From the NCBI RefSeq assembly GCF_013315695.1, contig NZ_CP054353.1: a stretch of DNA of 64,000 bases. One strand, given 5' to 3'. The DNA is from Escherichia coli. Its GTDB lineage: Bacteria > Pseudomonadota > Gammaproteobacteria > Enterobacterales > Enterobacteriaceae. The notes beneath the pieces are model-generated. The model was not told the origin of the DNA, did no database searches, and saw nothing but the letters and a program-made list of their open reading frames with translations. A program made the position numbers and the translations under genes. This document shows, piece by piece, positions 35,545 through 35,592 of this stretch (positions within the stretch are counted from its first letter, which is position 1; each line of letters starts with the position of its first letter).

Positions 35545-35592
35545 TCAGGGGAAGGTAAAAAAGAATGCGAAGAAAAACGGTGTGTGTTTCAT
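35545..35592 (-). CDS. pheL: pheA leader peptide PheL
   Basis: [15 protein letters not shown]; seven Phe codons; K-12 as recalled has Ile at position 4. Confidence 0.85.
   Translation of the reverse strand: [15 protein letters not shown]

Follow-up and report, generated by a model that had tools for sequence, protein, structure and literature searches.

A pheL leader of Escherichia coli with the commonest codon-4 allele (Thr4), from which K-12 differs by a single, most likely neutral, transition

When the phenylalanine leader peptide of an Escherichia coli genome departs from that of K-12 at one residue, is the genome unusual, or is K-12, and does the difference bear on the control of pheA? 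The question is raised by a short open reading frame (ORF) in the 64,000-nucleotide stretch of E. coli DNA analysed here (the window). An original prediction, made from the letters of this DNA, had named the ORF a variant of the pheL leader with Thr at position 4, where K-12 was taken to have Ile. The features on which the answer rests are the following, all on the minus strand.

35545-35592, minus strand: pheL ORF, 15 codons plus TGA, with the ATG starting at 35592 and the stop ending at 35545 (translation).
35581-35583, minus strand: codon 4 of pheL, ACA (Thr), which is ATA (Ile) in K-12 (alignment with MG1655 and ORF comparison).
35468-35593, minus strand: Phe leader RNA element, Rfam RF01859, Phe_leader (cmscan; a RefSeq "Phe leader region" lies at the same place in matching genomes).
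35502-35578, minus strand: large 1:2 (pause/anti-antiterminator) hairpin (Rfam consensus structure and ViennaRNA minimum free energy fold).
35474-35498, minus strand: 3:4 terminator hairpin with a 10-bp stem, 7 G-C pairs and a 5-nt loop (terminator scan, Rfam structure and fold).
35468-35473, minus strand: T tract (TTTTTT) after the terminator stem (sequence and tail of the terminator scan).
35642-35647, minus strand: TTGACA, presumed to be the -35 hexamer from which pheL-pheA is transcribed (inferred from sequence).
34286-35446, minus strand: pheA, a 386-aa chorismate mutase / prephenate dehydratase (identified by Pfam domains CM_2 and PDT and by the RefSeq annotation given to matching genomes).

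The assignment of 35545-35592 to pheL was borne out by the minus-strand translation, by the Rfam match and by the presence of pheA directly downstream on the same strand. The plus-strand frame of this interval is meaningless on translation, whereas the minus-strand peptide contains seven Phe codons among its 15 residues, in two runs of three, and its ORF ends in ACC TTC CCC TGA. The Phe_leader match scored 132.2 bits, where the gathering score is 55 (E = 8.2e-25), and covered model positions 1-125 of 125 without truncation. Four other Rfam matches (Arrc14, STnc130, ctRNA_p42d and sX6), which lie on terminators, scored far under their gathering scores with E-values of 0.2-0.9 and were set aside as chance. 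Very short ORFs do arise often by chance, but a chance reading frame in place of a leader peptide has next to no probability here, being refuted by the full-length Rfam match, the Phe content and the position directly 5' of pheA with a terminator in between, as well as by the conservation of both ORF and structure across genera. In RefSeq E. coli genomes the identical ORF is annotated as pheL under WP_001386991.1 ("pheA operon leader peptide PheL"), a record with the same 15 residues as the window, and pheL and the "Phe leader region" are annotated on DNA that is 100% identical. The ORF is thus the genuine, already annotated pheL of the E. coli pheA operon.

Read along the minus strand, the region comprises the end of raiA, a terminator at 35672-35653, the TTGACA hexamer, a Shine-Dalgarno-like AAGGAAA, the pheL ORF, the long hairpin, the attenuator terminator with its T tract and, after 27 further bases, the pheA ATG at 35446. 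The hexamer is kept in Escherichia albertii, Salmonella and Citrobacter (alignment), and the amplification primer of a published promoter-lacZ construct begins at this TTGACA (PMC3082878). A scan of 35400-35760 for the sigma-70 consensus returned no promoter-like sites; since the -35 hexamer is clear, this result is attributed to a -10 element that is poor or too weak for the scan. The upstream terminator (35653-35672, minus strand), a strong intrinsic one, has an 8-bp stem with 6 G-C pairs followed by TTTT and lies between the end of raiA and the pheL -35 hexamer; its position matches the K-12 annotation of the 3' part of the small RNA RaiZ (b4805), which derives from the raiA 3' region.

In K-12 MG1655, pheL (b2598, NP_417089.1; NC_000913.3 2737599-2737646) has ATA (Ile) at codon 4, so the original prediction was right about K-12, which does not share the Thr. 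The 241 bases at 35420-35660 of the minus strand were aligned with K-12 and with strain E2865 over 243 columns that take in the promoter, the leader with its attenuator and the first part of pheA. A single column varied (242/243 identical): window position 35582, base 11 of the ORF, is C in the window and in E2865 and T in K-12. The Phe-codon run and attenuator hairpin, described beforehand as intact, are accordingly those of K-12 base for base. The two loci share the order raiA-pheL-pheA-tyrA, the ORF length, the Phe run and the TTC CCC TGA ending, and their promoter region, 1:2 hairpin, terminator, T tract and spacing to pheA are identical. Strains E2865 and 2009C-3133 have DNA identical to the window over 361 bases.

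No difference was found either from the pheL genes with a UUC_CCC_UGA ending that Gurvich et al. (2011; PMC3082878, Figure 2A) group together: the window pheL is enterobacterial and short, with an internal Phe run and the same ending. Apart from AUG, the Phe codons and UUC_CCC_UGA, the codons of pheL differ among species, variation at sites like codon 4 is ordinary in this group, and the nucleotide sequence of pheL in Shigella flexneri 2a is that of K-12 (PMC3082878). The window pheL has every sequence-level feature that defines Phe_leader and the UUC_CCC_UGA group, and presents nothing new.

The surroundings of the locus are less ordinary than the leader. Homology with K-12 upstream of raiA ends at 36283, 24 bases past the K-12 bamD end point, and gives way to an insertion sequence located 246 bp upstream of raiA:

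About 36284-37709: IS4 element (terminal inverted repeats: 36284-36301 and 37692-37709).
36297-37643, minus strand: IS4 transposase ORF (Nterm_IS4 and DDE_Tnp_1 domains).
37751-39049, minus strand: eno (Pfam).

Strains of the E2865 type differ from the window in this flank, where the window has IS4 in place of bamD upstream of raiA. Past IS4 the window continues with eno, then pyrG and mazG, where bamD would be expected; on the K-12 map these three genes lie about 170 kb from pheA. The arrangement eno-IS4-raiA is consistent with a large inversion having occurred between two copies of IS4. Among 5,426 complete E. coli genomes, the order eno-IS4-raiA-pheL-pheA was present in only one, TW10690, at 98.5% identity, and 70 other genomes have IS4 adjoining eno but not raiA. 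The junction is more than 600 bases away from the pheL promoter and should have no effect on it.

How common each form of codon 4 is within the species was addressed by the comparison of pheL across E. coli genomes that the original prediction had proposed. With a 361-base query the locus was recovered from 5,425 of the 5,426 complete genomes, always on the chromosome. Haplotypes were then counted with 61-base probes running from -20 to +41 relative to the ATG and spanning codon 4, for which a single mismatch places a genome in the 95-99% identity band. The counts are of exact probe matches among the 5,422 genomes with a match, and do not amount to a genome-by-genome tabulation:

Window haplotype (Thr4, ACA): 3,560 genomes, 65.7%.
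K-12 haplotype (Ile4, ATA): 1,383 genomes, 25.5%.
Thr4 with Ile13: 428 genomes, 7.9%.
Other haplotypes: 51 genomes, 0.9%, by difference.

Thr4 therefore occurs in at least 73.6% of the 5,422 matching genomes. O157:H7, O104:H4 and 042 are among the genomes that the window probe matches exactly, while S88 differs from the K-12 probe by one base, consistent with Thr4; the Ile4 allele is carried by K-12 derivatives and also by human, pig and environmental isolates. These numbers leave virtually nothing of the idea that the difference arose in sequencing or assembly, or is a mutation private to this genome. Only a single base is involved, which would suit an error, but the same 61 bases recur exactly in thousands of independent complete genomes and the peptide has a RefSeq accession of its own, so that this explanation is refuted. 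Thr4 (ACA) is the commonest natural pheL allele and the Ile4 of K-12 a minority one. The word "variant" consequently holds for the window in so far as its leader differs from that of K-12, but not beyond, because Thr4 is the majority allele and, as set out below, also that of E. albertii.

Rarer alleles were inspected as well. They include synonymous changes to ACG (codon 4) and to CAT (codon 3), as well as a single loss of the stop codon. The Thr4 plus Ile13 allele (WP_001700969.1) agrees with the window in Thr4 and in its locus, and differs in Ile13, which the window lacks. It was seen in strains 4012, SL124 and ACN001, where the change is C to T at ORF base 38 (equivalent to window position 35555), which replaces a C-G pair by U-G in the 1:2 stem. 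In all three sequenced loci it is accompanied by U to A at base 50 (equivalent to window position 35543), in the loop of a small hairpin right after the stop codon; the window does not have this second change. In strain PCN061 (NZ_CP006636.1 2704593-2704637), the pheL stop TGA has become AGA on an Ile4 allele, and RefSeq treats the gene as a pseudogene. Judged from its sequence, this ORF would read on through attenuator regions 2-3 and could disturb attenuation.

The direction of the change was assessed from other species. A scan with the degenerate pattern FFFAFFF(T/I)FP, using one genome per species, returned at least 120 loci, all the named ones in Enterobacterales; Escherichia fergusonii, Escherichia marmotae, Salmonella enterica subsp. 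enterica and Shigella lie outside this species sample. Eleven of the 120 listed loci were left out because the 60 bases upstream of the pattern match contained no in-frame ATG; among them are loci of Klebsiella oxytoca/michiganensis, Raoultella, Kluyvera and Pseudocitrobacter. Residue 4 in the 108 listed species leaders read in register was V, L, T, K, R, I, D, F, Q, A, P or E; ATA did not occur at codon 4 in any of these 108, and in the six with Ile the codon was ATC or ATT. In the alignment, variation between the promoter and pheA is greatest at codons 2-5, and conservation is strong all the way from the Phe run through the T tract. The closest outgroup among the matches listed is E. albertii, whose leader region shares 93.2% identity with the window across 281 bases and is followed by pheA; its peptide starts MKHTP, with ACT (Thr) at codon 4. 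Because E. albertii has Thr and Thr4 is broadly spread in E. coli, parsimony, with this one close outgroup, points to Thr as most likely ancestral in Escherichia, and the ACA to ATA transition would be derived in a lineage that includes K-12.

Whether the exchange could matter for attenuation depends on where the base lies in the RNA. It corresponds to Rfam model position 12, within positions 1-15, which are unpaired in the consensus structure, and is 5' of every attenuator helix. The 1:2 hairpin lies 3' of the polymorphic codon, its first base being the G of Pro codon 5. When a 153-nt leader was folded with ViennaRNA, the ACA and AUA forms gave the same minimum free energy structure (-51.7 kcal/mol), with the polymorphic base unpaired; its ensemble pairing probability was 0.03 for C vs 0.19 for U, a small difference. 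A stalled ribosome was represented by masking the first 62 bases at the 5' end of this RNA, up to and including ORF base 37. Under this mask the predicted fold (-36.8 kcal/mol) was again the same for both alleles, and in it the 5' arm of the terminator paired with upstream sequence.

In the pheA attenuator, plentiful charged tRNA-Phe allows the ribosome to pass all seven Phe codons, so that the 3:4 terminator can form and transcription ends before pheA. If charged tRNA-Phe runs short, region 1 is covered by a ribosome stalled within the Phe run, the 2:3 antiterminator pairs and transcription enters pheA. With 242 of 243 columns identical, the mechanism can be carried over, and the window leader would attenuate as that of K-12 does; Phe-tRNA-dependent control of read-through into pheA is assumed here by analogy. 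A further property known for this ORF is +1 frameshifting where pheL ends, for which three wild-type codons before CCC_UGA are enough to give the wild-type level (PMC3082878).

The one alternative that keeps some plausibility concerns the K-12 codon itself. ATA is a rare codon in E. coli, decoded by the minor tRNA-Ile2. Early elongation could thus differ slightly between the alleles: AUA might slow the leading ribosome at codon 4 and shift the coupling of ribosome and polymerase, and with it the set-point of pheA attenuation, in which case the ACA allele of the window would give a different basal level of pheA. The absence of AUA at codon 4 from the listed species leaders and the high frequency at which both alleles are kept in E. 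coli are in keeping with such an effect. However, codon 4 precedes region 1 and lies outside all helices, the free variation of residues 2-5 among species (noted also in PMC3082878) argues against constraint, and the allele frequencies fit a neutral SNP linked to lineage. We consider a functional polymorphism of this kind improbable, with a slim chance of being right. Were it true, there would be a slight difference in the control of phenylalanine synthesis between most E. coli, this genome included, and the laboratory reference strain.

The Thr4/Ile4 difference is instead most likely neutral and without effect on regulation, given that the base lies outside all helices, that the predicted folds of the two alleles are identical and that codons 2-5 are variable across Enterobacterales. 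The expectation in the original prediction that regulation is probably unaffected is consistent with the position of the changed base outside all Rfam and predicted helices. The window very probably contains an ordinary pheL leader and attenuator with the commonest allele, from which K-12 is separated by a single, most likely neutral, transition, most likely ACA to ATA in the direction of K-12. The biological weight of this difference is very small, and nothing here points to an effect of AUA on attenuation. What the locus does illustrate is that there are sites at which K-12 is not typical of E. coli: at pheL the reference strain carries a minority, and probably derived, allele.
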